Origin: an uncultured Bacillota bacterium
Lineage (GTDB): Bacteria > Bacillota_I > Bacilli_A > RF39 > UBA660
Length of the DNA: 59,414 nt
Direction of reading: 5' to 3'
Assembly: GCA_946611635.1 (NCBI GenBank)
Contig: CAMODW010000004.1
Coordinates: 1-59,414, forward strand
The translations under genes and the position numbers were made by a program. This document shows, one piece after another, positions 60 through 52,479 of this stretch (position 1 is the first letter of the stretch; every line of letters starts with the position of its first letter). The notes beneath the pieces were generated by a model that saw nothing but the letters and a program-made list of their open reading frames with translations, searched no databases and was not told the DNA's origin.

Positions 60-1658
60 CTAATTCTCCATTATCAAAACTACTAAATAATCTAAATACT
101 GTTTAATAATAACATTAATATTATTTTTAGAATATATTTTCTTCAAATCATCATTATATATAAGTTCATAATTATCATTAACTAATTCCTTCTCAAAATC
201 AGCCGATAGATAAAAAGAATTGATAGATTTATAAGCTTTATTCTTATACCTTAAACTAACTATATTATCTACATAACTAGCTTTAATTAAATCTAAATTA
301 ATACTCTTTTCAATATTACCAATACCTTTATATTTATTCCATACTTTTTTAGGAATATCATTAAGTACTTCTTCTCTATTAAAACGATGATAATATTTCT
401 CTTTAAATTCTTTAAAACTAACACTTTTTATTTCTTTAAACTCTTTATTACTTAATTCTTTTTGTAATTCAATAATATAATCTGTACTATTTGCTATAGA
501 TATCTCATTATCAAGAGAATTACCTGTATTAAAACCTACAACTTCACCATTAGAATTATATAATGCACTACCAACATCACTTTTATTTAATGCTAACAAG
601 TTTTTATATTTACCATTAAACATCGTAACATTTTTTCCATAATTAACCATAAACCCATTATTACTTTTACTATCTATTACAAAAATATTATCATTATTAC
701 TTAATTGTTTAGAGGAAAAATTAACAGGGATTCCTACTTCTTCATTTAACTTAAGTATTACAAAGTCATACTCAGTATCAGCTGCTACTATTCCTTTTAT
801 ATTATAACTATTCTTATTAATATCATTAACATATAAAAATTCACTATTATTAAGCATCTCTAGTAACAAAGACCAACTAGTAACAACCAAACCTTTACTT
901 ATAAAAAATCCACTACCATATACATTAGTACCAGCATCAGCTAGTGCACTTATCGATACATTTTTACTTGCATTATCTTTATATAACTTTTCTAAATGAT
1001 CTACATTAACAATACTATCTACATTAGAATCTCCTAGAGATAAACTCTTATAAGTTCCCCCAATATTATCTCCCGCTTCTTCTTTATTTCCTAAATTATT
1101 AAAATACTCTTCTAAGTCTTCTCCCTTAGTAAACCAAGGCATAAATAGTTTATATCCATTTTTACCTTCTTTAAGATACAATACTAAAATAAAATCTTCT
1201 ATATTGCCGTTTATATTAGCATTAGGAAAATAAGAAAGAGTTATAACTCCTTGTTTAAATTCAACTGTTCTAATAAGTTTTACATAATCATATTTAATAT
1301 CTAGTTCATTTATCCCCTGAACAAACATATTTATAAACGATAAAGAAGATAAAGTATCAAAACCATTACTACTACTAATTAGTTGTTCTTTATGAAGCTC
1401 AGAAGATCTAGTTTCAATACTATCACTATTAAAAATTATATTAATTATCTTTTTAGTATATTTCTTAGCTTCTTCATTAACTAATTCAGTACTAACAAAT
1501 CCCTTTGTATCTATTTTATAACTCTTATCTAACTTCTCTATCAAACTATCTCCCTTAGAATTAATTTCTAATTTAGTAGTATCAATTAAAAAATCATTTT
1601 CACACAATACAACAGGAATAAATATAATAAATAATACGAATATCAATAGTTTTTTCAA
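60..1658 (-). CDS. secreted protein with a central trypsin-fold (S1/HtrA-like) domain; catalytic His not identifiable (possible pseudo-protease)
   Basis: 532-aa ORF. TTG start at 1658 lies 4 nt after GGTGGTGA and 14 nt below the upstream stop. Signal peptide MKKLLIFVLFIIFIPVVLC. Boxes GSGFFISKGLVVTSWSLL / DFVILKL / SDVGSALYNSNGEVVGFN align with the His/Asp/Ser boxes of S1 proteases, but the TNxHV His is absent. Confidence 0.5.
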   Translation of the reverse strand: MKKLLIFVLFIIFIPVVLCENDFLIDTTKLEINSKGDSLIEKLDKSYKIDTKGFVSTELVNEEAKKYTKKIINIIFNSDSIETRSSELHKEQLISSSNGFDTLSSLSFINMFVQGINELDIKYDYVKLIRTVEFKQGVITLSYFPNANINGNIEDFILVLYLKEGKNGYKLFMPWFTKGEDLEEYFNNLGNKEEAGDNIGGTYKSLSLGDSNVDSIVNVDHLEKLYKDNASKNVSISALADAGTNVYGSGFFISKGLVVTSWSLLLEMLNNSEFLYVNDINKNSYNIKGIVAADTEYDFVILKLNEEVGIPVNFSSKQLSNNDNIFVIDSKSNNGFMVNYGKNVTMFNGKYKNLLALNKSDVGSALYNSNGEVVGFNTGNSLDNEISIANSTDYIIELQKELSNKEFKEIKSVSFKEFKEKYYHRFNREEVLNDIPKKVWNKYKGIGNIEKSINLDLIKASYVDNIVSLRYKNKAYKSINSFYLSADFEKELVNDNYELIYNDDLKKIYSKNNINVIIKQYLDYLVVLIMEN

Positions 1659-1672
1659 GTTATCACCACCAA

Positions 1673-3283
1673 CTATATCTTACTTTTTAAAGTGTTAAAA
1701 ACATATATACTTGCTACTTTAGCATTATTTCCATTTAAATAAAAATCATGAAAAGCTTCTGCAATAGTTTCATCATAAATATAATTACCATTACCATCTT
1801 TAGCCATAGCATAATTTGATATAGAAGCTCTAAAATTATCAAAACTTATATTACTTCCAGTATCTCTAATAAATTTATTATATGCTTCTTCAATAAGCAC
1901 CTTACTATATATACCATCATTAAAATCATTATAAACAGCATACATTACATTTATTCTAGAACTAGTAACAAAAGTCATATCTGATACTCCATAATGATTA
2001 AGTAAAGCTACATATGATAAATAATGACCAAATTCATGAGCCACAGTACTACTTCTAACAGCATTACGAGGAAAATAACCTGTACTTGCTCCATAACTAG
2101 CTGAATTAGCTACTTTAGACGGATTTAAAAAATACTTCGTATTTAATAATATTTGCGCTTTTATACCAACTGGATAATTAGTAGTATTCTTACTTGTAAT
2201 AAAAGTAAAAATAGGCATAAAAGAAGCTATATAATTACCATTAGTAACATTTGCTAAAGTCATATTAGTCATATGATTACGTGCATTAGGAAAATTATTA
2301 TATATATAAGCAACTACTTTTTCTAGTTCAATAGCAAAATCAGTATCCATCTCACACAAATTAACAGCAGTAATACCATAATTACTTATTATATTATTTT
2401 CAATAGCTAATATATTAGAGCTACACTTACTCTTTTGTTTATTACTATCATATCTTATCAAATCTAATACTTCTTGTTTATTAGATAATTCTATTTGTTT
2501 AAAATATTGATTATCATGTATTATACTAGTTTGATACTTTTCAGTAACTACTCCATTATATCCAGATTTAGAAACTCCTTTTAATGAAGAATACTTCTCT
2601 AATCCAGGATTAGAAGGAATTGTTGGAATCGTGGGTGTAGCTGGAGTTGTCGGTGTCGTAGGTGTAGGAGGATTTGCTGGTGTTGTTGGCGAAGGTGGAG
2701 TCGTAGGTGTTGTTGGAGTCGTAGGTGTAGTTGGTGTAGTCGGAGTCGTAGGTGTAGTTGGATTTGTCGGAGTTTCAGGTGTTGTTACACCAGGATCCGT
2801 TTCATTACCCGTACCTACATTAGTATCACTACCATTATTACCCGTCTCATTTTCTTGATTATTATTATCACTACTTACTTTTTGTTCATCTAATCCTACA
2901 AAAAAGAAATCATTTGAATTCTTATTAATAATAAAATATGCAGCAGCTATCCAACAAGCAAGTAATATTAGAGCTACAAAAAGATTTATAGATTTACTCT
3001 TAATATCCTTAGCAACAACTATAAAATTATTATCAGAATTATTATTAGTTAATTCTCCATCATCAATAGGTTCTTCTTTTTTAGACATTAAATTGTTCAA
3101 TGGTGGATATTCAGCATCATTATTACTAAACATCTCATCTTCTTTTTTATTATTATCACTTATAATAGTATTTAACTGCGTATCTTTTCTTAAATAAGCT
3201 CCACAATTAGGACAGAAAGAAACACCTGGATTACTAACTATTGTTTTACACTTTTTACATTCCATCTTCTTCACCATCCTCAT
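1673..3283 (-). CDS. zinc-ribbon / single-TM / Pro-Thr-linker protein with a C-terminal HEFGH zinc metallopeptidase domain (anthrax-LF / PPEP-like, M34-type)
   Basis: 536-aa ORF; the true start may be MECKK at 3265, after GGTGAAG. N-terminal CKKC..CPNC zinc ribbon, TM LFVALILLACWIAAAYFII, TPTTPTTP linker. HEFGH is followed by KFIRDTGSNIS...SNYA...ETIAEAF, resembling the LF pattern KFIDIF..GSNLTSY...EFFAEAF. Confidence 0.55.
   Translation of the reverse strand: MRMVKKMECKKCKTIVSNPGVSFCPNCGAYLRKDTQLNTIISDNNKKEDEMFSNNDAEYPPLNNLMSKKEEPIDDGELTNNNSDNNFIVVAKDIKSKSINLFVALILLACWIAAAYFIINKNSNDFFFVGLDEQKVSSDNNNQENETGNNGSDTNVGTGNETDPGVTTPETPTNPTTPTTPTTPTTPTTPTTPTTPPSPTTPANPPTPTTPTTPATPTIPTIPSNPGLEKYSSLKGVSKSGYNGVVTEKYQTSIIHDNQYFKQIELSNKQEVLDLIRYDSNKQKSKCSSNILAIENNIISNYGITAVNLCEMDTDFAIELEKVVAYIYNNFPNARNHMTNMTLANVTNGNYIASFMPIFTFITSKNTTNYPVGIKAQILLNTKYFLNPSKVANSASYGASTGYFPRNAVRSSTVAHEFGHYLSYVALLNHYGVSDMTFVTSSRINVMYAVYNDFNDGIYSKVLIEEAYNKFIRDTGSNISFDNFRASISNYAMAKDGNGNYIYDETIAEAFHDFYLNGNNAKVASIYVFNTLKSKI
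2630..2790 (-). repeat. imperfect short tandem repeats encoding the Pro/Thr linker
   Basis: Reiterated ggtgtagttgg/ggagtcgtaggt units on the plus strand, giving (TPT/TTP)n in the minus-strand frame. Local G+T-rich island in an AT-rich window. Confidence 0.75.
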
Positions 3284-3318: not shown

Positions 3319-3352
3319 AGAAAAAAAGCTTCATACTATCGTATGAAACTTT
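3319..3352 (-). terminator. Rho-independent terminator ending the 4294->3355 transcription unit
   Basis: Minus-strand hairpin AAAGTTTCATAC-gata-GTATGAAGCTTT followed by TTTTTCTTT. Confidence 0.7.
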
Positions 3353-3354
3353 AT

Positions 3355-3756
3355 TTACTTAACTACCCAAGGATCAGCTTCTGAACCTGTTCCTCCAGCA
3401 AATTGAACACCAGCTTTAAGAGAAACCACAGGTCTAGTATCATATGCGATTCCTACAAAATTACCTTGATTACTACCATCAGTATCTGCAAAGACAACAT
3501 TATTACTAGTACCAAAAGAATTAATTGGCGGAATAATAAACCAAGGTTCTCCAGTCGCCATTAAAGAAGGAGTATTTATATTTGATAATTCTTCATTTTG
3601 TATAAGTCCAACAGGATAAGTTAACTTAGCTTTATTATTTGATACAGCAAACAGATCAGTAATATTACCATCATATTTAGTAAAACATGAAGAATTCTCA
3701 GTTTTAATTGTTGAATTATAGTATCTATTGTTACTCGTCTTCTTCTGACTGAACAA
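3355..3756 (-). CDS. hypothetical protein without a signal peptide; start uncertain (TTG only); C-terminal ...TRPVVSLKAGVQFAGGTGSEADPWVV motif
   Basis: 133-codon frame overlaps the upstream gene by 26 nt. The first in-frame ATG is at codon ~66 (LMATG). A good terminator follows. Could be a coupled small gene or a gene fragment. Confidence 0.35.
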   Translation of the reverse strand: MFSQKKTSNNRYYNSTIKTENSSCFTKYDGNITDLFAVSNNKAKLTYPVGLIQNEELSNINTPSLMATGEPWFIIPPINSFGTSNNVVFADTDGSNQGNFVGIAYDTRPVVSLKAGVQFAGGTGSEADPWVVK

Positions 3757-4294
3757 AAACTATTTCAAAAGATAACGATAAATCTTCAGCAACATCTAAC
3801 AAGTCTTCCTCTTCAATATCTTCTTTAAATAACAATTTAACTTTTATATTTTTAGACGATCCACCATTTAATATATCATTTACTGCTACTGGTGAATTAT
3901 TATTTGTATAAACAACAGAATAATCAACAATATCTTCCATCTCCGGTGTAATACCGCTAAAATCTACTAAAGACACCTTACCAGGCAAAGATCCTGAATT
4001 AACCATATCAACAGTAAATTCATAATACTTTCCAGGTCTATTTAATAATACAGCATAATCAATTTTCATATTATCCGAAGGATTAATTGTTGCTGGTGTT
4101 GAAGCTTCTACTGAACCTGGAGATATTTGAACATTTTCAAAATGTATATCCCAAGTATTACCGGCAACAGCAGTTGCTCCAGTAATAGAAAGATTACTAG
4201 TTAAATAAGCATAGCCAATTCCTATTACTAATACGAGTAACAGCAATAATATTTTTACTGTTTGGCTGTCTTTTCTTTTAAACCTCATATACAC
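3731..4294 (-). CDS. small secreted or N-terminally anchored protein, paralog A of a 3-member family (candidate SipW substrate)
   Basis: 187 aa. Basic n-region plus hydrophobic core ILLLLLVLVIGIGYA, then YLTSNLSITGAT, WDIHFENV and PGKYYEFTVDMVNSGSLPGK, all shared with 9761..10318 and 10394..10945. RBS AGAGGTG. Confidence 0.7.
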   Translation of the reverse strand: MYMRFKRKDSQTVKILLLLLVLVIGIGYAYLTSNLSITGATAVAGNTWDIHFENVQISPGSVEASTPATINPSDNMKIDYAVLLNRPGKYYEFTVDMVNSGSLPGKVSLVDFSGITPEMEDIVDYSVVYTNNNSPVAVNDILNGGSSKNIKVKLLFKEDIEEEDLLDVAEDLSLSFEIVFVQSEEDE

Positions 4295-4355: not shown

Positions 4356-6536
4356 TTAATTATCTTCTCCTCTTCCTAATACTTCACGAGGCTTAGAACC
4401 ATTTTGTGGTCCAATAACACCTCTTTCTTCTAATTGATCAATTATTCTAGCAGCCCTATTATAACCTAATCTAAACTTTCTTTGAATTAAAGAAGCTGAA
4501 ATTCTTCCTGTTTCATAAGCAAACTCTACAATTTCATTATATAATGGATCATCATCTGTTCCACCCGGTCCACTACCAATTCCATTACTAGCACCAGATC
4601 CATCAGCAGCTTTATCTAAAGTTTCATCATAAGTAGCAGTTTGTTGAGATCTAACAAAATTAATAACTCTTTCAACTTCATCATCCGTAATAAAGCAACC
4701 TTGAATTCTAATTGGATTATTAACTCCAATTGGCATAAATAACATATCACCTTTACCTAATAGTTTTTCAGCTCCTCCTCTATCTAAGATAGTACGTGAA
4801 TCTACAAAAGATGCAACTGCAAATGCTATTCTAGATGGTATATTAGCTTTAATAATACCGGTAATAACATTAGTACTAGGTCTTTGTGTAGCAACTATTA
4901 AATGTATACCTGCTGCTCTAGCAAGTTGAGTTATTCTTTGTATTGAACCTTCCACTTCTTTAGAAGCAACCATCATCAAATCTGCCAACTCATCAATAAT
5001 AACAACAATATATGGCATTTTTTCTCCTTTATCGGGATTTTTTTCTACCATATTATTATATTCTTCTATCTTTTTTACACCAGTCTCTGCAAAAAGATCA
5101 TATCTCTCATCCATAATACCTACAATTCTTTGTAAAGCTACAGAAGCTTTCTTAGGATCAGTAACAACCGGCCATAATAAATGAGGTATTCCATTATAAT
5201 GAGACATTTCAACCTTCTTAGGGTCCACCAAAACTAGTTTAACCTGATCATAATGATATCTCATTAATATTGAAGCTATAATACTATTCATACATACAGA
5301 TTTACCTGAACCAGTAGAACCAGCTACAAGTAAGTGAGGCATCTTCGTAATATCAGTAGTTTGAACTTTACCCATCAAATCTTTACCAAGAGCAACTAAT
5401 ATATTAGCTTTCTTTTGGTCCTCGGGAATACTACCTAATACTTCTCTAATTTTAACAGCACTAACATCCGGATTAGGAATTTCTATTCCTACTGTACTTT
5501 TACCTGGTATCGGTGCCTCTATTGCAACACTTTTAGCTGATAACGCTGCAGCAATTTCTTTATCTCTTGCTGCAACTTTAGAAAGTATAGTACCACTATG
5601 AACAGCAACTTCAAATTGAGTAACAGCCGGTCCAACATGAACCTCTACTACTTTACCTTCTATTCCAAAATCACTTAATACTTTTTCTAATTCCTTAATA
5701 TTTTTTCCAGTTGTACTATTATTATTTTGTTTAACTTTAGAAACCTCATCTAATAAATTAATACTAGGTAATCTATAAATACCCTTATTAGTAACTATTG
5801 GTTCCTTAGGGGCTTCATTTTCTACTTTAATACTACTAGCAACAGTAACAGGAATCTCAGGCTCCTTTTTATTAATTAAAGGATGCTTATCTTCTATGAC
5901 ATCAACATCATCGTCTTCTCCATCCTCTTCATCATCATTAGCTTTTCTAGAAAGTATAGACCCTTTAATAGAATCTAAAATACCTCCCAAATCAATATCA
6001 AATAATAATATTAAACCAATTATCAATAAAACAATTAATACTATAATAGTACCAACTTTATTAAATAAAGAATCAAAAGCATAAGCTAAAGTTCCACCGA
6101 TAATTCCTCCACCAACATTAATACTCTCTTCACCACTTGTAAATATAGATGCACTAACTCCAATAGTATCAATTCTTCTTTTACAATTTTCTACAGTCCT
6201 ATCAATAATCTCTGCCGGAGGAAAACTCTCTATAAAATAGAAATGACTTCCAACTAATAAAACTATTAACAACAAATAAAATCCAAATAATCGAGAAGAA
6301 ATTAAATTAGGTAACTTTCTTTTAAATAATAGATTTAAACTAATAAATATCAAAAAAAGTAAAATAAGAATCCACCATTCACCAACTAAAAATAACGCAC
6401 CTTTTTTTATCAAAGCTCCAAAAGCTCCAAATCCAAAACCCAATATACCTATTAGTAATAGCATTAAACCAAACAATATAATTTTCATTTCGGTATTAGA
6501 TGATTTCTTAGAAGATTTTTTCTTTTTCTTTGCCAT
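4356..6536 (-). CDS. ftsK: DNA translocase FtsK/SpoIIIE
   Basis: N-terminal TM segments, acidic linker, Walker A GSTGSGKS, DELADLM, and a C-terminal winged-helix gamma domain (LYNEIVEF..ISASLIQRKFRLGYNRAARIID). Start taken at MAKKKKK (6536) after GGTGAG, not the ORF-track 6593. Confidence 0.9.
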   Translation of the reverse strand: MAKKKKKSSKKSSNTEMKIILFGLMLLLIGILGFGFGAFGALIKKGALFLVGEWWILILLFLIFISLNLLFKRKLPNLISSRLFGFYLLLIVLLVGSHFYFIESFPPAEIIDRTVENCKRRIDTIGVSASIFTSGEESINVGGGIIGGTLAYAFDSLFNKVGTIIVLIVLLIIGLILLFDIDLGGILDSIKGSILSRKANDDEEDGEDDDVDVIEDKHPLINKKEPEIPVTVASSIKVENEAPKEPIVTNKGIYRLPSINLLDEVSKVKQNNNSTTGKNIKELEKVLSDFGIEGKVVEVHVGPAVTQFEVAVHSGTILSKVAARDKEIAAALSAKSVAIEAPIPGKSTVGIEIPNPDVSAVKIREVLGSIPEDQKKANILVALGKDLMGKVQTTDITKMPHLLVAGSTGSGKSVCMNSIIASILMRYHYDQVKLVLVDPKKVEMSHYNGIPHLLWPVVTDPKKASVALQRIVGIMDERYDLFAETGVKKIEEYNNMVEKNPDKGEKMPYIVVIIDELADLMMVASKEVEGSIQRITQLARAAGIHLIVATQRPSTNVITGIIKANIPSRIAFAVASFVDSRTILDRGGAEKLLGKGDMLFMPIGVNNPIRIQGCFITDDEVERVINFVRSQQTATYDETLDKAADGSGASNGIGSGPGGTDDDPLYNEIVEFAYETGRISASLIQRKFRLGYNRAARIIDQLEERGVIGPQNGSKPREVLGRGEDN

Positions 6537-6634
6537 ACTACTCACCATAATAATTATATAATAATTAAATACTAAAAGCAAAGAAAACAACATGCAAGAG
6601 AAAAATTGTTTTTACGTTTCCTATACATTATTTA

Positions 6635-6663
6635 TTGTTTTTTCTATTTCATATTGCTATAAT
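6635..6663 (+). promoter_or_regulatory. sigma-A-type promoter for prsA
   Basis: TTGTTT-17 nt-TATAAT, with TGc immediately upstream of the -10 (extended -10); about 30 nt before the AAGGAGGAAAGG RBS. Confidence 0.5.
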
Positions 6664-6695: not shown

Positions 6696-7781
6696 ATGAA
6701 AAAGAATATTACAAGAATTGTAGTGTTATTACTTTGTGTCCTAATAGTAACTGGTTGTGGAAGCAAAATACCAAAACTATCTAACGGAGATGAAGCAGTT
6801 GTAACACTAAAAGGCGGATCAAAGATAAGTGCAAATGATCTATATACAAAATTAAAAGATGATTATGCATTAAATGCTTTGGTTAATATGATAGATAAGA
6901 ATATACTTGAAAAAGAGTATAAAAACAAGAAAAAAGATGCAACAAGCGATGCAGAAAAAACAATGAAAGAACTAGAAGACGCTTACGGAGATGATTTATT
7001 AAATACTATTCAATACTATACTTCATATTCAACTGTTGAAGGATATAAAGAATATTTATATATTAATTATCTTCAAAATTTAGCTATCGAAGACTACAGT
7101 AAAAAACAAATAACTGATAAAGAAATTAAAGATTATTATGAAAAAGAAATAGTTGGAGATATTAAAGTTAATCATATTCTTATAACTGCAAAAGTAAAAG
7201 ATGATATGACCGACGATGAAAAGAAAGCTAAAGAAGACGAAGCTAAAAAGAAAGTTGAAGATATCATTGCTGAATTAAAGAAAACTGACTCTAAAAAAAT
7301 TAAAGACAAATTCAAAGAATTAGCTGAAAAGAACTCTGAAGATGATGCAACAAAGAGTAATGGAGGTTCTTTAGGATATATTAATAAAGATACTCTAGAT
7401 AGTAGTTATGATGAATTAGTTAATGCAGCATACAAATTAAAAGACGGTGAATATTCAACTAAAGTTATCACAACTGAACTAGGATATCATGTAATATTAA
7501 GAGAAGCATCAAAAGATAAAGCTCCTTTAAAAGATGTAAAAGATTCTATCATAGAAAAACTAGCTACCGAATATAAAACAAAAAATCCAGTTGCTAGTGT
7601 AAAAGCCTTACAAGAATTAAGAAAAAGTTATGACATGGAAATTGTTGATAGTGAATTAAAAACACAATATGCTAAATACATTCAAAATCAATTAGCACAA
7701 GCTCAACAACAACAAAATCAAAGTAATAGTCAAGCTCAACAACAAAATCAAAGTAATAGTCAAGCTGAACAATCTAATTAA
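6696..7781 (+). CDS. prsA: foldase lipoprotein PrsA (parvulin-type peptidyl-prolyl isomerase) with a Gln/Asn/Ser-rich C-terminal tail
   Basis: Lipobox LIVTGCGS. Parvulin core VNHILI...GGSLGYINKD...ELGYHVI. Strong RBS. Confidence 0.85.
   Translation: MKKNITRIVVLLLCVLIVTGCGSKIPKLSNGDEAVVTLKGGSKISANDLYTKLKDDYALNALVNMIDKNILEKEYKNKKKDATSDAEKTMKELEDAYGDDLLNTIQYYTSYSTVEGYKEYLYINYLQNLAIEDYSKKQITDKEIKDYYEKEIVGDIKVNHILITAKVKDDMTDDEKKAKEDEAKKKVEDIIAELKKTDSKKIKDKFKELAEKNSEDDATKSNGGSLGYINKDTLDSSYDELVNAAYKLKDGEYSTKVITTELGYHVILREASKDKAPLKDVKDSIIEKLATEYKTKNPVASVKALQELRKSYDMEIVDSELKTQYAKYIQNQLAQAQQQQNQSNSQAQQQNQSNSQAEQSN
7698..7772 (+). repeat. direct tandem repeat (33 + 30 + partial 12 nt) encoding QAQQQ(Q)NQSNS
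   Basis: caagctcaacaacaa(caa)aatcaaagtaatagt repeated head to tail at the 3' end of prsA. Confidence 0.85.
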
Positions 7782-7796
7782 TATCAGCAAAAAAAT

Positions 7797-7818
7797 AGTA
7801 GAGAATTAATTCTCTACT
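7797..7818. terminator. bidirectional terminator shared by convergent prsA and the 7814 gene
   Basis: Perfect palindrome AGTAGAGAATT/AATTCTCTACT flanked by an A-run and a T-run. Contains the TAG stop of the minus-strand gene. Confidence 0.8.
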
Positions 7819-8509
7819 TTTTATTTTTCCCTGCTCTTCTATTAAGACTTTTAAACACTTGTGTTTTAGAAACATCATCCATATCTTTTAGCTTAGGTAA
7901 ATTAGCTAATGTTTGACCTAATAACTTAGAATCCTTAATTGTCCCTCTACTATTATCTTTAAGCGGAGAAATTCGATAAGACTTATTATTACTTAGCTTA
8001 ACAACCGTAGTATTTTCAATACCATCAAAAACACTTTCAGCATCATTTTTTGTTTTATTCCTTTGCTCCTTTAACCAATTATCAAATCCCGTCTCTTCAG
8101 AATCATCAACCTTTAATAGCAATATACAAGCTTGAGTATCATCTACTAAAACAAATAAAACACTTCTATCTTCCCTTTTATAATAAATTGGTTTTCTTAC
8201 TTCTATTTGAGCATCTATAAGATCATCAAAATTCGAAACTTCTACAATACTTCTATCACCAATACTAGGCAAATCAACAACATCAACTAAAACAGCATCA
8301 TATGTATTCATAATCTTCTTTAAAAAAGAATTATATTCATCTTCAGGAGACTTATTAAAATTTAAACCTTTTATAAAAAAGAATAAAGATATAAAAGCAA
8401 GCGGTATAGTTATAATCATATATTTATATAGGTCATTTACATATAAGAAATATGATATCAAACCTAATAATATAAAAAGTACCAAACCTATTAAACTCTT
8501 TTTATTCAT
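7814..8509 (-). CDS. 2-TM membrane protein with a ~170-aa soluble C-terminal domain and basic tail; last gene of the SipW operon
   Basis: Start MNKKS at 8509 lies 6 nt after GGAGGAG and 1 nt after the SipW stop. Two hydrophobic helices (LIGLVLFILLGLISYFLYV, MIITIPLAFISLFFFI). No recognisable catalytic motif. Confidence 0.7.
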   Translation of the reverse strand: MNKKSLIGLVLFILLGLISYFLYVNDLYKYMIITIPLAFISLFFFIKGLNFNKSPEDEYNSFLKKIMNTYDAVLVDVVDLPSIGDRSIVEVSNFDDLIDAQIEVRKPIYYKREDRSVLFVLVDDTQACILLLKVDDSEETGFDNWLKEQRNKTKNDAESVFDGIENTTVVKLSNNKSYRISPLKDNSRGTIKDSKLLGQTLANLPKLKDMDDVSKTQVFKSLNRRAGKNKK

Positions 8510-8510
8510 A

Positions 8511-9659
8511 TTAATCTCCTCCATTTAATAATTCAGATATATATACTGATGGATAAGCTATATAAGGAATTTTAAAAACAACTTTTCCTTTTATACTATC
8601 ATAAGTAACATCAAATACATCTTCTGTATTATTATTATCACCTTTCGTATGATAATAATACTTACCATTTTTTTTCTCAATTCTAACTAACCTATGAACA
8701 ACGATCCTATCTTCACCCTTAAATATCAAAATATCATTTAGTTTTAATTCATTTTCCTTAACTTTTGCTCCAAACACAGCATCCCCAACCTTAATAGAAG
8801 GTTCCATAGAAGCGCTACCAACACCAAGTAAAAACCAAGGAAAGTATCCACTAATAAGAGCTGCCAAGCAAAAAAACAAAGCTATAACTACAAAATCAAA
8901 AGGTTTAAAAGTTGTATAAACAAAATCTCGCTGAACACCATCATTGAAATCAGAAATGAATCTTGAACTATATAAATATACCAAGAATGGTAAACCTATA
9001 CTAAACATAGATAACAAATAATCTCCTAAATCAGGGAATATAGGTACAAAAAACATATAACAATCTAAGACCAACCTATATAATAAAGAAGGCTTATATC
9101 CAACATAATACGTTAAATAACTTAGAACATAATGTTTAACAGTAAGAGGTATAAAAACTAAAGTTAAAAACCTAAAAAGACCAGAAATTTCATTAAGTGG
9201 ATAAGCTTTAATACTCATTATCGCTTCAACCATAACAAAGAAAATAGTTAGAAACGCTATTGATACTTTTTGATTCTTATTAGGAACAATAAATATATAT
9301 CTAAGCAATTCCATAGATACAATAATAGCAATTGGTGCAAATACATTATCAATAATTGAACTAGCTTTTAAAGAATAAGAATTACTTAAAAATCCCACAA
9401 CTAAACCTAAACCATAAATTACTAGAAAATATATTATGATCTGTGTAGCAATAATTTGCAATATACTTTTCCTAGCATAAGTTTTCTTATCTTTAGCAAA
9501 ACCATAGAATAAATAAGCAACAAATGTAATAACAATTAAAAAACATGCTGTTATCGATTCAGAATACTTTAAAAATTTATCTAATATATAAAAAACATAT
9601 AAATAAATATATGTTCCAAGAAGTAATATAATTATAAAATTCTTTAAATATTTTTTCAT
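8511..9659 (-). CDS. SipW-type (ER/archaeal-type, S26B) signal peptidase I fused to a ~270-aa N-terminal polytopic membrane domain
   Basis: The C-terminal ~110 aa carry GSASMEPSIKVGD, VVHRLV and TKGDNN, matching B. subtilis SipW SGSMEP / THRIV / TKGDNN. The N-terminal part has at least 7 hydrophobic segments. RBS AGGGAG. Confidence 0.85.
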   Translation of the reverse strand: MKKYLKNFIIILLLGTYIYLYVFYILDKFLKYSESITACFLIVITFVAYLFYGFAKDKKTYARKSILQIIATQIIIYFLVIYGLGLVVGFLSNSYSLKASSIIDNVFAPIAIIVSMELLRYIFIVPNKNQKVSIAFLTIFFVMVEAIMSIKAYPLNEISGLFRFLTLVFIPLTVKHYVLSYLTYYVGYKPSLLYRLVLDCYMFFVPIFPDLGDYLLSMFSIGLPFLVYLYSSRFISDFNDGVQRDFVYTTFKPFDFVVIALFFCLAALISGYFPWFLLGVGSASMEPSIKVGDAVFGAKVKENELKLNDILIFKGEDRIVVHRLVRIEKKNGKYYYHTKGDNNNTEDVFDVTYDSIKGKVVFKIPYIAYPSVYISELLNGGD

Positions 9660-9720
9660 AATAATACTCCCTATTTATTCCTTATATAAGAAGACAAATC
9701 TCTTTATCTTCATATATAAA

Positions 9721-9757
9721 AAATAAATATATAATCGTCAGATTATATCATTTATTT
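9721..9757 (-). terminator. AT-rich hairpin plus T-run between paralog B and the SipW gene (terminator or attenuator)
   Basis: Minus strand AAATAAATGATATAATC-tgac-GATTATATATTTATTT followed by TTTAT. Confidence 0.5.
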
Positions 9758-9760
9758 TTA

Positions 9761-10318
9761 CTAAGCTTGAACAAAATTCATAATATAAGCTAAATTTAGT
9801 GCAGGTACTTGATTATTAATAGTAGTAGCATCAGCAAGTTCTCTACTATATTCAACTCTTATTCTTAATTTAATAGATTGATTTGCTGCTAATTCTAAAT
9901 TAGCTGGAACATCTACATCCACATTATCTTCTATCATTTTAACAGTATAGACAATATAAGGATAACCCTCTGCTCCAGTCTTTGAAGTTGAATTCAATTT
10001 AGCGGCTAAAGACCCAGAATTAACTACATCAACAGTAAATTCATAAAAATCCCCAGGAGCATTCAAATCAACAGCATATGACAATTCAGTAGTATTTGAT
10101 GCAGTATAAGGTTCATTTTCTGTATTTACTGAACCATTTGTAATAGCAACATTTTCAAAATGAACATTCCAAGAAGATCTCCCGATATTAGCAGTACCAT
10201 TAATCTGAAGAACAGAACTTAATGCAGCATATCCTACTCCAATGACAACAAACAATAATAATAAACCAATTACCAATAAAGTATTACTATTATTTTTCTT
10301 TTTGCTCTCTTTATTCAT
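9761..10318 (-). CDS. small secreted protein, paralog B (candidate SipW substrate or major subunit)
   Basis: 185 aa. LLVIGLLLLFVVIGVGYA / ALSSVLQINGTA / WNVHFENV / PGDFYEFTVDVVNSGSLAAK. RBS AGGAGAG. Followed by a hairpin. Confidence 0.7.
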   Translation of the reverse strand: MNKESKKKNNSNTLLVIGLLLLFVVIGVGYAALSSVLQINGTANIGRSSWNVHFENVAITNGSVNTENEPYTASNTTELSYAVDLNAPGDFYEFTVDVVNSGSLAAKLNSTSKTGAEGYPYIVYTVKMIEDNVDVDVPANLELAANQSIKLRIRVEYSRELADATTINNQVPALNLAYIMNFVQA

Positions 10319-10393
10319 CTTAACTCTCTCCTATCTTAAAAAAATAATATCATTATTTTCTTTTCGTTTCCACTATTTAAATTTCGTTTTACA

Positions 10394-10945
10394 TTAATTT
10401 TGTATATAGTTAACACTAAACGCTAAATTAACAGTTTCATACAAATCATTCAAATCATCTTCATTAATCGGTAAAAGTTTTAAATACTTAACATTTACTT
10501 TTATTTTTTTCCTTTCTCCAGCTCTAAGAATATCACCTTCATTTATTGGAGAACCATCTAAATAAGTTATATTATATTCAATATATTCCTCTTGTTCGGA
10601 AGACAAACCAATTTTTTGACAATCAGTAACTTTTGCATCTACTGTACCTTCGTTATACACATCTGCTACCAACTCATAATAATCATCTATTTTATTAAGA
10701 TTTATCGAAAAACTTATAATAGTTCCTTGACTATTTACACTAGGTGGAACAACAGCAAGACTATCTCCATTAGTAACATTAACATTATCAAAATGAATAT
10801 TCCATTCACTTCTTCTAATATTAGTAGTACCATTAATCAAAATATTTGATGATACTAAAGAATAACCTAAAGTTATACATAACAATAATAAAATAATCAG
10901 CAAAACGTAATTTTTTCTTTTTTTCGATTCGTTTTTTTCTTCCAT
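10394..10945 (-). CDS. small secreted protein, paralog C (more divergent)
   Basis: 183 aa. VLLIILLLLCITLGYS / LVSSNILINGTT / WNIHFDNV / DDYYELVADVYNEGTVDAK. TGcTATAAT-like -10 at 10972..10980 upstream. Confidence 0.65.
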   Translation of the reverse strand: MEEKNESKKRKNYVLLIILLLLCITLGYSLVSSNILINGTTNIRRSEWNIHFDNVNVTNGDSLAVVPPSVNSQGTIISFSINLNKIDDYYELVADVYNEGTVDAKVTDCQKIGLSSEQEEYIEYNITYLDGSPINEGDILRAGERKKIKVNVKYLKLLPINEDDLNDLYETVNLAFSVNYIQN

Positions 10946-10992
10946 AACATCATCTTCCTACTATATTATTCATTATAGCATATAAAAAATAA

Positions 10993-18160: not shown

Positions 18161-18189
18161 AAAAAATAAGAATGTCACCATTCTTATTT
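18161..18189 (-). terminator. terminator after ezrA (stop codon inside the stem)
   Basis: AATAAGAATG-gtga-CATTCTTATT followed by TTTTGAAG on the minus strand. Confidence 0.75.
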
Positions 18190-19902
18190 CAACCCCTTTA
18201 ATAATTTTTCGGACACTCCAGGTTCTACACTATTTAGTGCTTGTAAAGTACTTTCTAAAGACTTTTTATACTCACCTTTGTAGAAAAAATCTTCTGCTTT
18301 TCTCAAGGCTTCATTCATACCTTTATTAACCGTTCTATATCTATTACCATAGACAACAGCCATTTCTGCCATAGCAGCAGTTTTAACAATCTGATTGGCA
18401 GTATTATAAACTTTTAAAACTAAATCTCTAGCTGTATCAACCCTTATATTTAAAGTTTTAATACTTATAGGTTGCATATTGAGTTCTTTTATCATTTCTT
18501 CTATAGCAGCTTCTGCTTCATCTATTTGAACATAATAATACTGTGGTATAACAGGCAAATTATAAGTATATACTTTTTCTTTTCCTTTTCTCATTATTTC
18601 AGTTATTTCTACAAGCTGTTCCCTAGCTCTAGATTCATCTTCTTCTAATCCTCCAAGACTATGAAGCGCTCCATTAAGTTTTTCTTCTGTCTTAGCTAAA
18701 CGATTACTTAATGTTTCCATTTCTTTACCTAATCTAGTATAAGCAAAAGAACCTGTTCTATGCGCATTTATTATCTCATCATAATCCCTCTTTATAGCTG
18801 ATATTTCTTGTTTAATAACCTCTATAACTTTTACATCATTATCCGTTAAATCATAACTATACTTTATAACATCCATTTTCCTATATAAAGTATTATTTAT
18901 CTTTTCTATTTTATTAGCTCTTACTATTATTTTTCTTGTGTACTCTTCAAATACTTTTTTAGCATTTCTTTCCTCATCAAAATTATCATACAAACTATCA
19001 AAATAGTTTAATATAGTCCTTAAATCTTGTGTACTATCTTCAACATTTAACACATTTAATTTATCAAAAATATCTGATATCTTTTTCTTAGTTTCTTCAA
19101 TATTATAATCCAAATTTAAATAATCTAAATTATATCCTTCTTTAACAAGCCGATCATAAACATTCTTTACATCTTCTATTTTACTAGGAATTAAATTACC
19201 CCCCAATATAATTATTGTTGGTGCTTCATCAACTATTATTCTTAAATTACCAATAATATCAGATATTCCCTTAACAATTTTACCAACTTCTTCATAACTA
19301 TTATTCTCCATAGCTATTTCAAAAGCTGCAAAAAGTTTATCAACATTTTCAAATTGTAATTCTAAAGAATCACTAACTTCCTTATAATCATTTTTACCAT
19401 TATTATATTTATTAACTATATCCCTATATTCCGTTTTTAATTTAATAATACTATTCCTATTCTTTTCTTCAGACAAAGTAATATCTTTTATCTCTTCAAG
19501 TAAAAAATTAGTTTTAGTCTTTACATAGTATATTTCCAATTCAACCGGAGCAAGTTTTTCTTCTAACTTTTTAAACTCTTTATCATTATAAAGATCTTCT
19601 ATTTCGATTAATTCATCAGTAATTTTAGGAACATCTTCATCTTTTATTCTATTAAAACGTTCTTTCCAGTCTTCCAATTTTTCTTGCATTTTATCATTAT
19701 CACTAATTAATGCTTCTACTTTATGAATTTCGCTAAGAATAGAAGAAGATATAATTAAATTCTTTTCTCTTTCTAAAGAATTAATTTCTCTTCTAAAACG
19801 TTTTCTCTCATTATTATTTATTACATTTAGAACAATTATCAATATTATGATACTAACTATATAAAAAGAAATACCAGCAAGTATATATGCAGTCTGACTC
19901 AT
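18184..19902 (-). CDS. ezrA: septation ring formation regulator EzrA
   Basis: 572 aa. Single N-terminal TM, long coiled-coil repeats, GNRYR patch near the C-terminus. Synteny with the nifZ-like gene, thiI and rpsD as in B. subtilis. Confidence 0.85.
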   Translation of the reverse strand: MSQTAYILAGISFYIVSIIILIIVLNVINNNERKRFRREINSLEREKNLIISSSILSEIHKVEALISDNDKMQEKLEDWKERFNRIKDEDVPKITDELIEIEDLYNDKEFKKLEEKLAPVELEIYYVKTKTNFLLEEIKDITLSEEKNRNSIIKLKTEYRDIVNKYNNGKNDYKEVSDSLELQFENVDKLFAAFEIAMENNSYEEVGKIVKGISDIIGNLRIIVDEAPTIIILGGNLIPSKIEDVKNVYDRLVKEGYNLDYLNLDYNIEETKKKISDIFDKLNVLNVEDSTQDLRTILNYFDSLYDNFDEERNAKKVFEEYTRKIIVRANKIEKINNTLYRKMDVIKYSYDLTDNDVKVIEVIKQEISAIKRDYDEIINAHRTGSFAYTRLGKEMETLSNRLAKTEEKLNGALHSLGGLEEDESRAREQLVEITEIMRKGKEKVYTYNLPVIPQYYYVQIDEAEAAIEEMIKELNMQPISIKTLNIRVDTARDLVLKVYNTANQIVKTAAMAEMAVVYGNRYRTVNKGMNEALRKAEDFFYKGEYKKSLESTLQALNSVEPGVSEKLLKGLK

Positions 19903-35284: not shown

Positions 35285-35316
35285 AAAAAATAACCAAACT
35301 TTTTTGTTTGGTTATT
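35285..35316 (-). terminator. terminator after the 353-aa gene
   Basis: Minus strand AATAACCAAAC-aaaaaa-GTTTGGTTATT followed by TTTTTACC. Includes the TAA. Confidence 0.75.
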
Positions 35317-36376
35317 ATTTATTAATTATCATTGAATAATCAGCACCTGCTAAGTTTCTTTCACTCTTCTTCAAATCATTCTTTACATATACTTCATCAT
35401 CATTAACTTTAACTATTATTTTTCCATTCTCTTCATTTGAAGAAACACTATTAATAGCTACATAACTATTTTCAAACATAGTTCTAACAGCATACGAGTC
35501 AAAAACTTTAATATTATATACGTCATTAACAACTAACAAACCAGCCCCTGCAAAACTATAATCTGTAGCATTTTCAAATACTAAATTACCCTTAAAATCA
35601 TATGCTTCAAAGCTTTGATCTTTTTTTACTATTAACATTTCTCCATCATAAGCAACAATAGGGCTATTAAATTCCTTAGAATAAACAGAATTATTTTTTA
35701 CATCTATAATAACCCAATCCTCACCTTTTCTAGCTGCGAAAAAGTTTTGACTATCTATTTTCTCTCCAGTTGGAACAAAAATACCTATATAATCATAATC
35801 AAAACTAACCATATCTACAATCTTATCACCATTAAATCTAATAACTCCCCACTTACCATTTTCATCCTTAGCAATAAAAGTTTGTAATTCATTTTTATTA
35901 TAATTTTTAATAGCTTGATACTCCTTTACTACTTTACTTGTAGTAAAATCATAAACCTTAACTCCACCATCTCTATGAAGAGTTTCATCCTCAGCGTCAT
36001 CATCGAATAACAAGACAAACCTATTATTAATAATCTTCCTAATTTGATAATCTTGTGAAACATCCACTGCTCTTAAATCATATAAAGCATCATCAGTATA
36101 TCCATATACATAGCCACAAGAAGAATGTGAACACTTATAAGTTCCTACAACACTACCACCACTTTTAATATTTAAAACTCCATCATTAAACTCTTTTTCT
36201 TCTTCAGTACGCATGTTTTCTTCAGTAACGCTACTAGTTTCATTAACAAAACTAATAAACTTTGCAACTCCTCCAACAACACCAAATATAAAACAAAGGG
36301 CACAAGAAGCAATCATAACTATTAGAGCTATTCTCTTATTGTTCTTCTCCTTAGCTTTAATATCATTTCCTTCCAC
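35315..36376 (-). CDS. type II membrane protein with WG-type (KWG-like) repeats
   Basis: GTG start after GGTGAT. TM IALIVMIASCALCFIFGVVGGVA. ...GKWGVIRFNGDKIV... repeat units. Confidence 0.5.
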   Translation of the reverse strand: MEGNDIKAKEKNNKRIALIVMIASCALCFIFGVVGGVAKFISFVNETSSVTEENMRTEEEKEFNDGVLNIKSGGSVVGTYKCSHSSCGYVYGYTDDALYDLRAVDVSQDYQIRKIINNRFVLLFDDDAEDETLHRDGGVKVYDFTTSKVVKEYQAIKNYNKNELQTFIAKDENGKWGVIRFNGDKIVDMVSFDYDYIGIFVPTGEKIDSQNFFAARKGEDWVIIDVKNNSVYSKEFNSPIVAYDGEMLIVKKDQSFEAYDFKGNLVFENATDYSFAGAGLLVVNDVYNIKVFDSYAVRTMFENSYVAINSVSSNEENGKIIVKVNDDEVYVKNDLKKSERNLAGADYSMIINK

Positions 36377-41189: not shown

Positions 41190-41531
41190 AAAACTTAATA
41201 AGCCACGTTCTGTTCTCCTTTCGGAGCGGCAAATATTTATCTACCTATCACTAGGTCCTTTGCATCGTTCTAATTCCTAGCAAAGACTCCCCTACCAAAT
41301 TTGGGTTTCTCACTCGCGGGGTTTACCACGTTCCACCCTAAGAATTACTTCTTAGACTCGTCTCTTTGGCACTTTTACATCTACTTTAATCCCATAAGGA
41401 CTATTTCGAAGCCGTCAGTATAAACTGCCTAAGGTTATTTTTTCCCTTAGCACGAACACTACAACCATCACAGATTGTGTGAGCTTGGACTTTCCTCAAT
41501 ATACCCTAAGTATACCGCATTTGCCTAAGTT
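41190..41531 (-). ncRNA. rnpB: RNase P RNA, type B (Firmicutes type)
   Basis: The minus strand reads ...GAGGAAAGTCCAAGCTCACA..GTAGTGTTCGTGC..AAAGTGCCAAAGAGACGA..GGTGGAACGTGGTAAACCCCGCGAGTGAGAAACCCAAATTTGGTAGGGGA..ACAGAACGTGGCTTA. This matches B. subtilis rnpB segment by segment. P1 pairs AACTTA/TAAGTT. Local GC-rich island next to gpsB, as in B. subtilis. Confidence 0.92.
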
Positions 41532-41879
41532 CTAATTTTTATCATCCTTATTATTATCTCCAAAAACCACCTTTTCTAACTGACTAAGTCTTCTTAATAA
41601 ATCGACATTATTAACAGAAGAACCACTATTTCCATCTCTTTCTGCAGCAGAGATACTATCTTTTAACCTTCTAAGTTCATTTTTTAATCTCATATTCTCA
41701 TCATTTAATAAACTTATTTCTTTTCTATATTCCTTTATCATATTATTATATTCATTATAATCTCCGATAATTTGATCTAAAAATTTATCAACTTCTTGAG
41801 GTCTAAAACCTCTAGCATCTATTTTAAAATCTTTATTTAATATATCTTCTATTGTTAAAGATATTTTATCTCCGTACAT
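41532..41879 (-). CDS. gpsB: cell-cycle protein GpsB (DivIVA-domain)
   Basis: DILNKDFKIDARGFRPQEVDKFLDQIIGDY. ATG at 41879 after GAAGGGTGA. The ORF-track start 41903 lies upstream of the predicted transcription start. Confidence 0.88.
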   Translation of the reverse strand: MYGDKISLTIEDILNKDFKIDARGFRPQEVDKFLDQIIGDYNEYNNMIKEYRKEISLLNDENMRLKNELRRLKDSISAAERDGNSGSSVNNVDLLRRLSQLEKVVFGDNNKDDKN

Positions 41880-50277: not shown

Positions 50278-50305
50278 ATAAAAAAAGAATGGCTAGTGCC
50301 ATCTT
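50278..50305 (-). terminator. terminator after the 715-aa paralog
   Basis: AAGATGGC-acta-GCCATTCTT followed by TTTTTTATTTT. Includes the stop. Confidence 0.65.
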
Positions 50306-52451: not shown

Positions 52452-52479
52452 AGAATTCACCTATTATAAGTATAACATA

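Follow-up and report, generated by a model that had tools for sequence, protein, structure and literature searches.

A probable AbpX-type fibre operon with a polytopic signal peptidase in an uncultured lineage of gut Bacilli

We analyzed a 59,414-nucleotide stretch of DNA (the window) from an uncultured Bacillota bacterium of the GTDB lineage Bacilli_A, RF39, UBA660 (GenBank assembly GCA_946611635.1, contig CAMODW010000004.1, positions 1 to 59,414). An operon of four co-directional genes on its minus strand encodes two small secreted paralogs (parA and parB), a signal peptidase of 382 amino acids (aa) fused to a polytopic membrane domain, and a 231-aa partner with two transmembrane (TM) segments; a third paralog, parC, lies in a satellite locus. 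An earlier reading of the sequence alone (the sequence-only reading) had listed these genes, which were confirmed with coordinates on the minus strand, and had proposed an undescribed module in which a SipW-type peptidase matures dedicated fibre subunits. Profile comparison places the paralogs, as divergent members, in the AbpX clade of the TasA superfamily, a group of donor-strand-complemented fibre subunits, and we consider it likely that the operon directs the assembly of extracellular fibres, of the cell surface or the matrix, by donor-strand complementation. The novelty claimed for the module did not hold, as the same three parts, including the many-TM peptidase, have been reported (bioRxiv 10.64898/2026.01.04.697558). 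Because such a system was first described in 2025-2026, the window operon represents a divergent new branch and not a new invention.

The operon and its expression signals

The four open reading frames (ORFs) of the operon are intact and have good Shine-Dalgarno sequences (Table 1). A possible promoter element for parA, the extended -10 sequence TGCTATAAT, was read from the sequence 13 nt past the recX stop codon and some 27 nt ahead of the ATG of parA; it is missing from the consensus promoter scan because its -35 is poor. No terminator was found by the terminator scan between recX and parA, and read-through from recX is therefore also possible.

The 81-nt spacer after parB had been noted for a hairpin followed by a T-run. 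This was borne out by RNA folding (-19.9 kcal/mol, z = -4.27), with none of 200 shuffled sequences equally stable. The first of the two hairpins in the spacer looks like a terminator or attenuator, and the GC-dependent consensus terminator scan missed it because its stem is AU-rich. Attenuation at this site is plausible and may increase the ratio of subunit to enzyme. From its sequence parB is a plausible major subunit, and parA is probably a minor one. Downstream, the partner ATG at 8509 lies 1 nt past the peptidase stop codon and 7 nt behind GGAGGAG, as first described from the sequence and as called independently in another assembly; given this spacing, the two genes may be translationally coupled.

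Table 1. Coordinates of the features discussed (in the window, unless a related locus is named)
Feature	Position	Strand	Remarks
parA	10394-10945	-	183-aa AbpX-like subunit; leader aa 1-29, ends GYS; one Cys; PGD motif degenerate
parB	9761-10318	-	185-aa AbpX-like subunit; leader aa 1-31 (10226-10318), ends GYA; beta-sandwich core aa 52-184
parB predicted donor strand	10172-10225	-	aa 32-49, ALSSVLQINGTANIGRSS
Peptidase fusion	8511-9659	-	382 aa; stop TAA at 8513-8511
N-terminal polytopic domain of peptidase	8844-9659	-	aa 1-272; nine predicted TM helices, N-in/C-out
C-terminal ER/archaeal-type signal peptidase I domain	8511-8843	-	aa 273-382; TIGR02228
Partner (DUF5305, truncated)	7814-8509	-	231 aa; PF17231
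parC (third paralog, satellite)	3731-4288	-	185 aa from ATG behind GAGGTG; begins earlier, at GTG 4294, in the ORF list; leader ends GYA; mature pI 4.05
Possible extended -10 element TGCTATAAT	10972..10980	-	read from sequence
Two hairpins, parB-peptidase spacer	9690-9763	-	first 9715-9763, AU-rich stem then T-run; second 9690-9711
Bidirectional intrinsic terminator	7797-7818	both	9-bp stem, T-runs on each strand; closes operon, common to convergent prsA
prsA	6696-7781	+	between operon and parC
ftsK	4356-6593	-	between operon and parC
orf3355	3355-3756	-	overlaps parC 3' end in other frame; no convincing start codon, no ATG, no Shine-Dalgarno sequence
Terminator	3325-3352		common to parC and orf3355; terminator scan
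EzrA gene	18184-19902	-
Class B RNase P RNA	41194-41532	-	272.7 bits
PBP1A-family class A penicillin-binding protein gene	42614-45526	+	970 aa
Long genes after DUF5305 in relatives	L003 8160-10694, L007 8045-10402, L012 8169-10847, L048 8054-10279, L030 8536-12000		candidate tip adhesins

The paralogs and their relation to AbpX

The products of parA, parB and parC are 33-37 % identical in pairwise comparison (E 1e-20 to 1e-26), and their paralogy was thus upheld. Among the motifs ascribed to them, W(D/N)(I/V)HF(E/D)NV was present in all three, as was the G-Y-(A/S) junction, with conservative deviations (parA has V and I for L, and parC ends in G-A, not G-T). The motif PGxxYEFTVDxVNSGSL was found only in parB and parC; the corresponding stretch of parA reads IDDYYELVADVYNEGTV. 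In the alignment of the window paralog family (A1), the invariant or near-invariant positions are the leader junction IGYAALSTTLxINGTANI...W(N/D)VHF, next PGDFYEFTVDVVN.G, and the C-terminal NYVQA. Homologues numbered 73 in a single-sequence search and at least 356 in a profile search (clusters at 90 % identity), all of them unnamed or labelled 'hypothetical'. Pfam and NCBIfam scans of the single paralogs and of 43 family members assigned no family, with just sub-threshold fn3, DUF11 and CARDB noise. Peptidase_M73 and the SipW-cognate leader model TIGR04088, with which a comparison of the leaders had been suggested, did not match any window paralog at E up to 1, and among the 43 family members neither was one of the 25 most-matched of 57 Pfam families. 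A profile search of the PDB with the paralogs gave insignificant immunoglobulin (Ig)/FN3 matches only (best E 0.4).

A relation to AbpX was detected by comparison of profiles. A phmmer search with AbpX alone retrieved 20 proteins (E up to 1e-3), and their genes lie beside a polytopic peptidase in Clostridia-type, Chloroflexota and other loci. When A1 was compared by hhalign with an alignment of AbpX and 19 of its phmmer matches at E up to 1.4e-4 (A3), the two matched over 162 columns (Prob 98.9 %, E 3.4e-17). The match persisted without the leader (Prob 96.6 %) and with the core only (96.5), and ten column-shuffled controls reached at most 0.4. Further, jackhmmer seeded with AbpX picked up all three window paralogs in the second round. 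Because this profile homology survives removal of the leader, we regard the paralogs as divergent members of the AbpX clade.

The cleavage junctions align residue for residue, TYA followed by QWSETLSLSATI in AbpX and GYA followed by ALSSVLQINGTA in parB, and the alignment also spans the PG...N.G motif and the C-terminus. In the structure of AbpX determined by cryo-electron microscopy, the segment after TYA is the donor strand, which is unstructured in the monomer (bioRxiv 10.64898/2026.01.04.697558; PDB 9SJ2, 9RHP). The AlphaFold2 model of parB is a beta-sandwich with strands within aa 52-184 (mean predicted local distance difference test score, pLDDT, 89.2; core >90). Residues 34-51, the best-conserved stretch of the family, have no secondary structure in this monomer (block pLDDT 67-76). 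The G-Y-A site conforms to the -3/-1 rule, and the conserved N-terminal extension begins right behind it. The mature proteins are acidic, with isoelectric points (pI) of 4.37 (parA), 4.35 (parB) and 4.05 (parC) and Asp plus Glu contents of 14.9, 11.0 and 17.1 %; the same calculation gave pI 4.05 and 14.9 % for AbpX.

The donor strand of AbpX carries a Trp clamp at position 2 and a glutamate, E4, that ligates Ca2+, and the D46/D48 loop of the protein is acidic (bioRxiv 10.64898/2026.01.04.697558). At position 2, parB and parC have Leu and parA has Val, the gut-Bacilli clade has L, F or Y, and bona fide AbpX-like proteins have an invariant W. At position 4, which is acidic in AbpX, all three window paralogs have Ser and the clade has mostly S, T or Q. 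The consensus is GYAxW(S/T)(E/D/Q)xL for bona fide AbpX-like proteins and GYA followed by x(L/F/Y)(S/A)(S/T/Q)xLxINGT for the gut-Bacilli clade. Acidic counterparts of E4 and of the D46/D48 loop were not found in an alignment that is uncertain at the loop. With Ser in place of Asp/Glu at position 4 and a non-acidic loop, a Ca site is therefore not evident in the window proteins. Since the clade has neither the Trp clamp nor the Ca-binding Glu, calcium probably does not gate its strand exchange in the manner of Pyrodictium abyssi AbpX.

A feature of the predicted gut-Bacilli donor strand in its own right is the near-invariant N-G-T, an N-glycosylation sequon (I-N-G-T, parB residues 39-42). This tripeptide is absent from bona fide AbpX-like proteins and could be purely structural, for example a turn.

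The signal peptidase, its partner and their distribution

The C-terminal 110 aa of the fusion scored 82.8 bits with TIGR02228 (cutoff 51.85), the model for signal peptidase I of the ER/archaeal type (MEROPS S26B), and the Ser-His (ER/archaeal) type motifs SMEPS, HRLV and KGDNN that had been read from the sequence are present. The catalytic set comprises Ser284 (SMEPS), His322 (HRLV) and Asp341/Asp347 (KGDNNNTED), all invariant in the alignments A2 and A5. The protein failed the Bacillus SipW equivalog model NF046067 (61.7 bits, cutoff 190). In the AlphaFold2 model of the fusion (pLDDT 79.7), nine helices precede the catalytic beta-domain; thus the domain had rightly been called polytopic, and the count of at least seven TM segments is replaced by nine. 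Hydropathy and positive-inside loop charges fit an N-in/C-out topology, with the catalytic domain outside. The best PDB matches of the model in Foldseek were human SEC11C (7p2q, E 2.7e-4) and SEC11A (7p2p, E 7e-4), in both cases covering only the catalytic domain. A tenth, C-terminal TM helix as in SipW was rejected: by hydropathy of its tail the window peptidase has no C-terminal TM segment, which is also absent in 71 of 75 family members. The 'ten' helices of the preprint and the nine found here probably reflect a difference in counting.

Neither Pfam nor NCBIfam gave a match to the membrane domain, and Foldseek gave no fold relative for it in the PDB. When it was searched alone against 1.84 billion representatives, 590 clusters (50 % identity) were obtained. 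The full-length matches among the best 150 of these were 330-410 aa long, mostly 370-400 aa, with the membrane domain at the N-terminus; therefore, within those 150 clusters, the domain is always fused to the peptidase. Residues G85, E117-x-x-R120 in TM4, P171 and P206-x-x-P209-(D/N)-L at the outer end of TM7 are invariant across phyla, from Bacilli to Chloroflexota (A5), which argues for a specific function of the domain. The ExxR and PxxP(D/N)L motifs resemble no family that we can name. Identity as a CPBP/CAAX protease, a rhomboid or an exosortase-like protein was discarded, because the domain has ExxR and no conserved membrane His or Cys, and no Pfam match.

The 231-aa partner, for which a role in export, anchoring or assembly had been surmised, is a DUF5305 protein (PF17231, 38.1 bits, gathering cutoff 29), matching only profile positions 126-212 of 217. 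DUF5305 has been proposed as an accessory subunit of signal peptidase I (SPase I) and likened to subunits of the eukaryotic signal peptidase complex (bioRxiv 10.64898/2026.01.04.697558). Aligned with canonical homologues of about 360 aa (A4), the partner keeps the two TM helices and the cytoplasmic domain, has lost the ectodomain of about 230 residues, and has gained a clade-specific C-terminal tail. A 7-residue outer loop connects the TM hairpin in place of the ectodomain. The same arrangement is found in three related loci (L001, L003 and L004), whereas L002 keeps just the cytoplasmic domain; L086 also encodes a short form, of 204 aa. The short form spans the whole sub-clade at 31-35 % identity, which implies selection.

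To examine the distribution of these genes, a single genome was scanned for each GTDB species. The peptidase had at least 522 relatives there, and 80 loci were examined, 74 of them with the full polytopic form. AbpX-like genes, one to five per locus, accompanied the polytopic peptidase in 67 of the 74, a result that bears on the co-occurrence check suggested for the fusion and the paralog family. A DUF5305-like gene lay directly downstream of the peptidase in 67/74 loci, and both were present in 60/74, with most exceptions on short contigs. Synteny of the peptidase with AbpX-like genes and with DUF5305 held in about 90 % of loci over Bacilli, Clostridia, Chloroflexota and other lineages. In contrast, all five classical short SipW-type loci (peptidase about 197 aa) had neither AbpX-like genes nor DUF5305. 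The related contigs carry source labels from the guts of humans, rabbits, ruminants, chickens and mice. Some subunit copies in relatives adjoin the peptidase and others are satellites like parC.

These data bear on the possibility that the polytopic protein is a general housekeeping signal peptidase, or does something unrelated in the membrane, for instance transport or lipid-linked chemistry, and that its position beside the paralogs is meaningless. Its TM domain has no assignable family or fold, the invariant charged intramembrane ExxR could suggest a catalytic or transport role, and the window holds no other signal peptidase gene for comparison. However, the synteny across lineages, the lack of both companion genes at short SipW loci, the constant fusion of the TM domain to a peptidase domain among the best 150 of 590 clusters, and the translational coupling suggested by the partner start codon make this explanation very improbable.

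The intervening position of prsA, which the sequence-only reading had pointed out, was confirmed, together with that of ftsK. A functional link to prsA was rejected because no PrsA-like gene occurs in any of the 80 related loci; the adjacency is coincidental.

Proposed assembly, neighbouring genes and comparison with known systems

We propose that the operon encodes an AbpX-type system for donor-strand-complemented extracellular fibres, a reading that we hold to be likely and whose steps of cleavage, polymerisation and accessory action are modelled on AbpX, TasA and the haloarchaeal Tat-fimbriae (Tafi). The products of parA and parB, and that of parC from its satellite locus, would be inserted into the membrane by their Sec-type leaders. 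The SEC11/SipW-like catalytic domain on the outer face would cut after the invariant G-Y-(A/S) and so free the conserved amphipathic N-terminal extension (ALSSVLQINGTA... in parB). The freed strand would enter the open groove of the beta-sandwich of the next subunit, giving a chaperone-free fibre. The truncated DUF5305 protein would assist the peptidase as an accessory subunit from the membrane and cytoplasmic side, and the polytopic domain, with ExxR and PxxP(D/N)L, may be a dedicated platform for substrate handling or assembly rather than a mere anchor. A more specific version is speculative and rather doubtful. It holds that the nine-helix domain is an assembly platform embedded in the membrane, where it would couple leader cleavage to donor-strand hand-over through ExxR and PxxP(D/N)L, as a functional analogue of an usher or a pilin-polymerising sortase; that it works with a cytoplasm-only DUF5305 and without calcium gating; and that the fibres it builds, in gut bacteria that are abundant and uncultured, serve in adhesion or in a matrix.

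Homology to AbpX and synteny over dozens of genomes support the fibre interpretation of the sequence-only reading; the models of the SipW-cognate leader and of Bacillus SipW, in contrast, were not matched. Several observations weigh against a fibre. The lone AbpX sequence matched A1 with only Prob 32 and E 5e-4. Foldseek with the parB model gave no hit below E 1e-3, the TasA fibre (8aur) reaching E 0.022 and the Saci_0406 thread (7pnb) E 0.037, and the deposited AbpX structures 9sj2 and 9rhp were outside the top 50; support at the fold level is lacking, perhaps because the query retained the TM helix and the unpaired strand. The window proteins lack both donor residues called structurally critical in AbpX, the aromatic position 2 and the acidic position 4. 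The partner departs from the canonical DUF5305 architecture (TM1, extracellular beta-sandwich, TM2, cytoplasmic alpha/beta domain) in missing the ectodomain. There are family members that lie as satellites at a distance from any peptidase, and the window cluster has no LPXTG, sortase or SLH anchor and no long tip protein, unlike L003, L004 and L005. Finally, for the gut-Bacilli clade both cleavage and polymerisation are predictions drawn from AbpX, TasA and Tafi.

The paralogs could instead be non-polymerising beta-sandwich proteins of the surface or the medium (coat proteins, binding proteins, or ectodomains that keep the leader as a TM anchor) that the peptidase processes or regulates, with no fibre. 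The missing Trp clamp and acidic residue, the generic Ig-like or beta-sandwich character of the fold matches, the weak fn3, DUF11 and CARDB matches in family members, and the AlphaFold2 leader, which is one long helix through GYA, would all suit such proteins. However, the paralogs show full-length profile homology to a solved donor-strand fibre subunit, G-Y-A conforms to the -3/-1 rule and the dedicated peptidase is strictly syntenic. Further, the segment after GYA is the most conserved of the protein and yet has no place in the monomer fold, which a plain anchor or linker fails to explain. We consider this alternative unlikely.

The gene that follows DUF5305 in relatives encodes a protein of 740-1155 aa, in most cases with an AbpX-like leader and module at the N-terminus. 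The long proteins of relatives bear DUF285/leucine-rich repeat (LRR), Listeria-Bacteroides repeat, SdrD_B/Big or VWA modules. This combination makes them candidate tip adhesins, although the N-terminus of the L030 protein was not shown to be AbpX-like. In the window, the last ~100 aa of orf3355, beside parC, match by phmmer the C-termini of long proteins of relatives (L005 1636-3096, L005 3121-4425, L004 1768-3153 and L030 8536-12003), of which L005 1636-3096 begins with an AbpX-like domain and the L030 protein has a VWA domain. Thus orf3355 is probably a split-off remnant of a tip or minor-subunit extension, and together with parC it has the look of a tip or minor-subunit gene that was split or frameshifted.

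A detached-looking C-terminal domain without a start codon, a parA without the PGD motif, a truncated DUF5305 and the lack of a long tip protein such as those of L003, L004 and L005 could together indicate that the cluster is a decaying remnant that no longer assembles anything in this organism. Against this stand the intact reading frames of the operon with their good Shine-Dalgarno sequences, the intact catalytic residues, the conservation of the window peptidase at 98-100 % over several samples (a 35-member cluster) and the selection implied by the short DUF5305 of the sub-clade. We therefore regard decay as highly unlikely.

Two 6.6-kb contigs of other assemblies (L084 and L085) match the window with 100 % identity through parC, as far as window position 3781. 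Past this point a single ORF (5418-6638, at least 407 aa) leads on into sequence that is unrelated, rich in Cys, His and Trp and cytoplasmic-looking, up to the contig end. The longer parC is probably an assembly chimera and was set aside as evidence because of this switch to unrelated sequence at a contig end; a strain-specific recombination point is a lesser possibility for the junction. Directly downstream of parC and orf3355 lie two unannotated genes. The first (1673-3283, minus strand) encodes a 536-aa protein that has a zinc ribbon at the N-terminus, a single TM segment and, behind a long linker of Pro/Thr repeats, a C-terminal domain bearing a HEFGH metalloprotease-like motif, and the second (60-1658, minus strand) a secreted 532-aa protein with a trypsin-like domain (PF13365). 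From their sequences, both may be surface- or matrix-processing enzymes.

Further orphans occur elsewhere on the minus strand of the window. The tandem genes at 50304-52460 and 52679-54847 encode proteins of 718 and 722 aa that are 36 % identical over about 650 aa, lack a signal peptide and match nothing in Pfam or NCBIfam. A very acidic 789-aa protein (36399-38768) and a 353-aa single-TM protein (35315-36376) show weak similarity to each other (23 % over about 220 aa, E 5e-5 to 1e-4), and neither matched a family. The class B RNase P RNA, the PBP1A-family penicillin-binding protein and EzrA, in a window of about 27 % GC, mark the host as a walled low-GC Firmicute, even though the metagenome-assembled genomes of close relatives carry 'Mollicutes' or 'Tenericutes' labels.

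Donor-strand fibres of the TasA superfamily are emerging as a cross-domain route to biofilm matrices and pili. The branch found in uncultured low-GC Bacilli of animal and human guts comprises at least 356 subunit clusters (90 % identity) and 590 peptidase-domain clusters (50 %), and its fibres could be of importance as the cells adhere, aggregate and colonise in the gut. Because its donor strands lack the Trp clamp and the Ca ligand and its DUF5305 is reduced, the clade provides natural experiments on what is essential for chaperone-free strand exchange and on the role of DUF5305. Further, genes now labelled 'hypothetical protein' and 'signal peptidase I' could receive names.

The eukaryotic signal peptidase complex (SEC11A/C, SPC12, SPC22/23 and SPC25; 7P2P, 7P2Q) provides the best structural match of the catalytic domain and likewise places a Ser-His-Asp enzyme amid extra helices, contributed there by accessory subunits. 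In the window protein, the extra helices are fused in cis, with no detectable similarity to the SPC subunits, and the enzyme would be dedicated to few substrates, whereas the eukaryotic complex is general.

The tapA-sipW-tasA operon of Bacillus subtilis resembles the window operon in that a dedicated ER/archaeal-type peptidase is encoded with its fibre substrates; its subunits are beta-sandwiches and TasA fibres are donor-strand fibres. The PGD...F.F.N.GSL motif of the window proteins presumably resembles that of TasA. In contrast to the window peptidase, with its 382 aa and nine N-terminal helices, SipW has about 190 aa, two TM segments and no polytopic domain. Further, the window has no TapA and no match to Peptidase_M73 or TIGR04088, and its DUF5305 gene is absent from the Bacillus operon.

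Haloarchaeal Tafi combine pilins (TafA/TafE), a dedicated SPase I (TafD) and DUF5305 (TafG) in donor-strand fibres, and deletion of tafD abolishes both TafA processing and the fibres (PMC11821415, PMC12337348). They differ from the window system in their Tat leaders, in a TafD with four TM helices, an N-terminal catalytic domain and a second outer domain, in a TafG with the full DUF5305 ectodomain, and in pilins from a different cluster of the TasA superfamily.

In both archaea and bacteria, AbpX-like loci contain genes for minor subunits and tip subunits, for a dedicated SPase I 'possessing ten transmembrane helices' and for DUF5305, termed an 'SPase I-associated accessory protein'; the examples given are Thermoproteota and Methanosuratincola archaea and, among bacteria, exclusively non-Bacilli Firmicutes (bioRxiv 10.64898/2026.01.04.697558, January 2026). 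The window operon shares with these loci the small acidic subunits of about 160 aa when mature, the Sec leader ending in (T/G)-Y-A, the amphipathic donor strand, the beta-sandwich or jelly-roll core, the PG...N.G and C-terminal N..Q motifs, the several paralogous minor subunits, the dedicated many-TM ER/archaeal-type SPase I and the DUF5305 gene. In contrast, the invariant Trp of AbpX is replaced at position 2 by Leu or Val (Phe or Tyr in many clade members), I-N-G-T follows the strand only in the window clade, the DUF5305 protein has no ectodomain, and the cluster contains no SLH or LPXTG anchor, regulator or tip gene. The host also differs, being an uncultured gut lineage of Bacilli. What is new is therefore a large, unannotated and sequence-divergent gut-Bacilli branch of the AbpX system, in which the donor strand is altered and the accessory protein is minimal.

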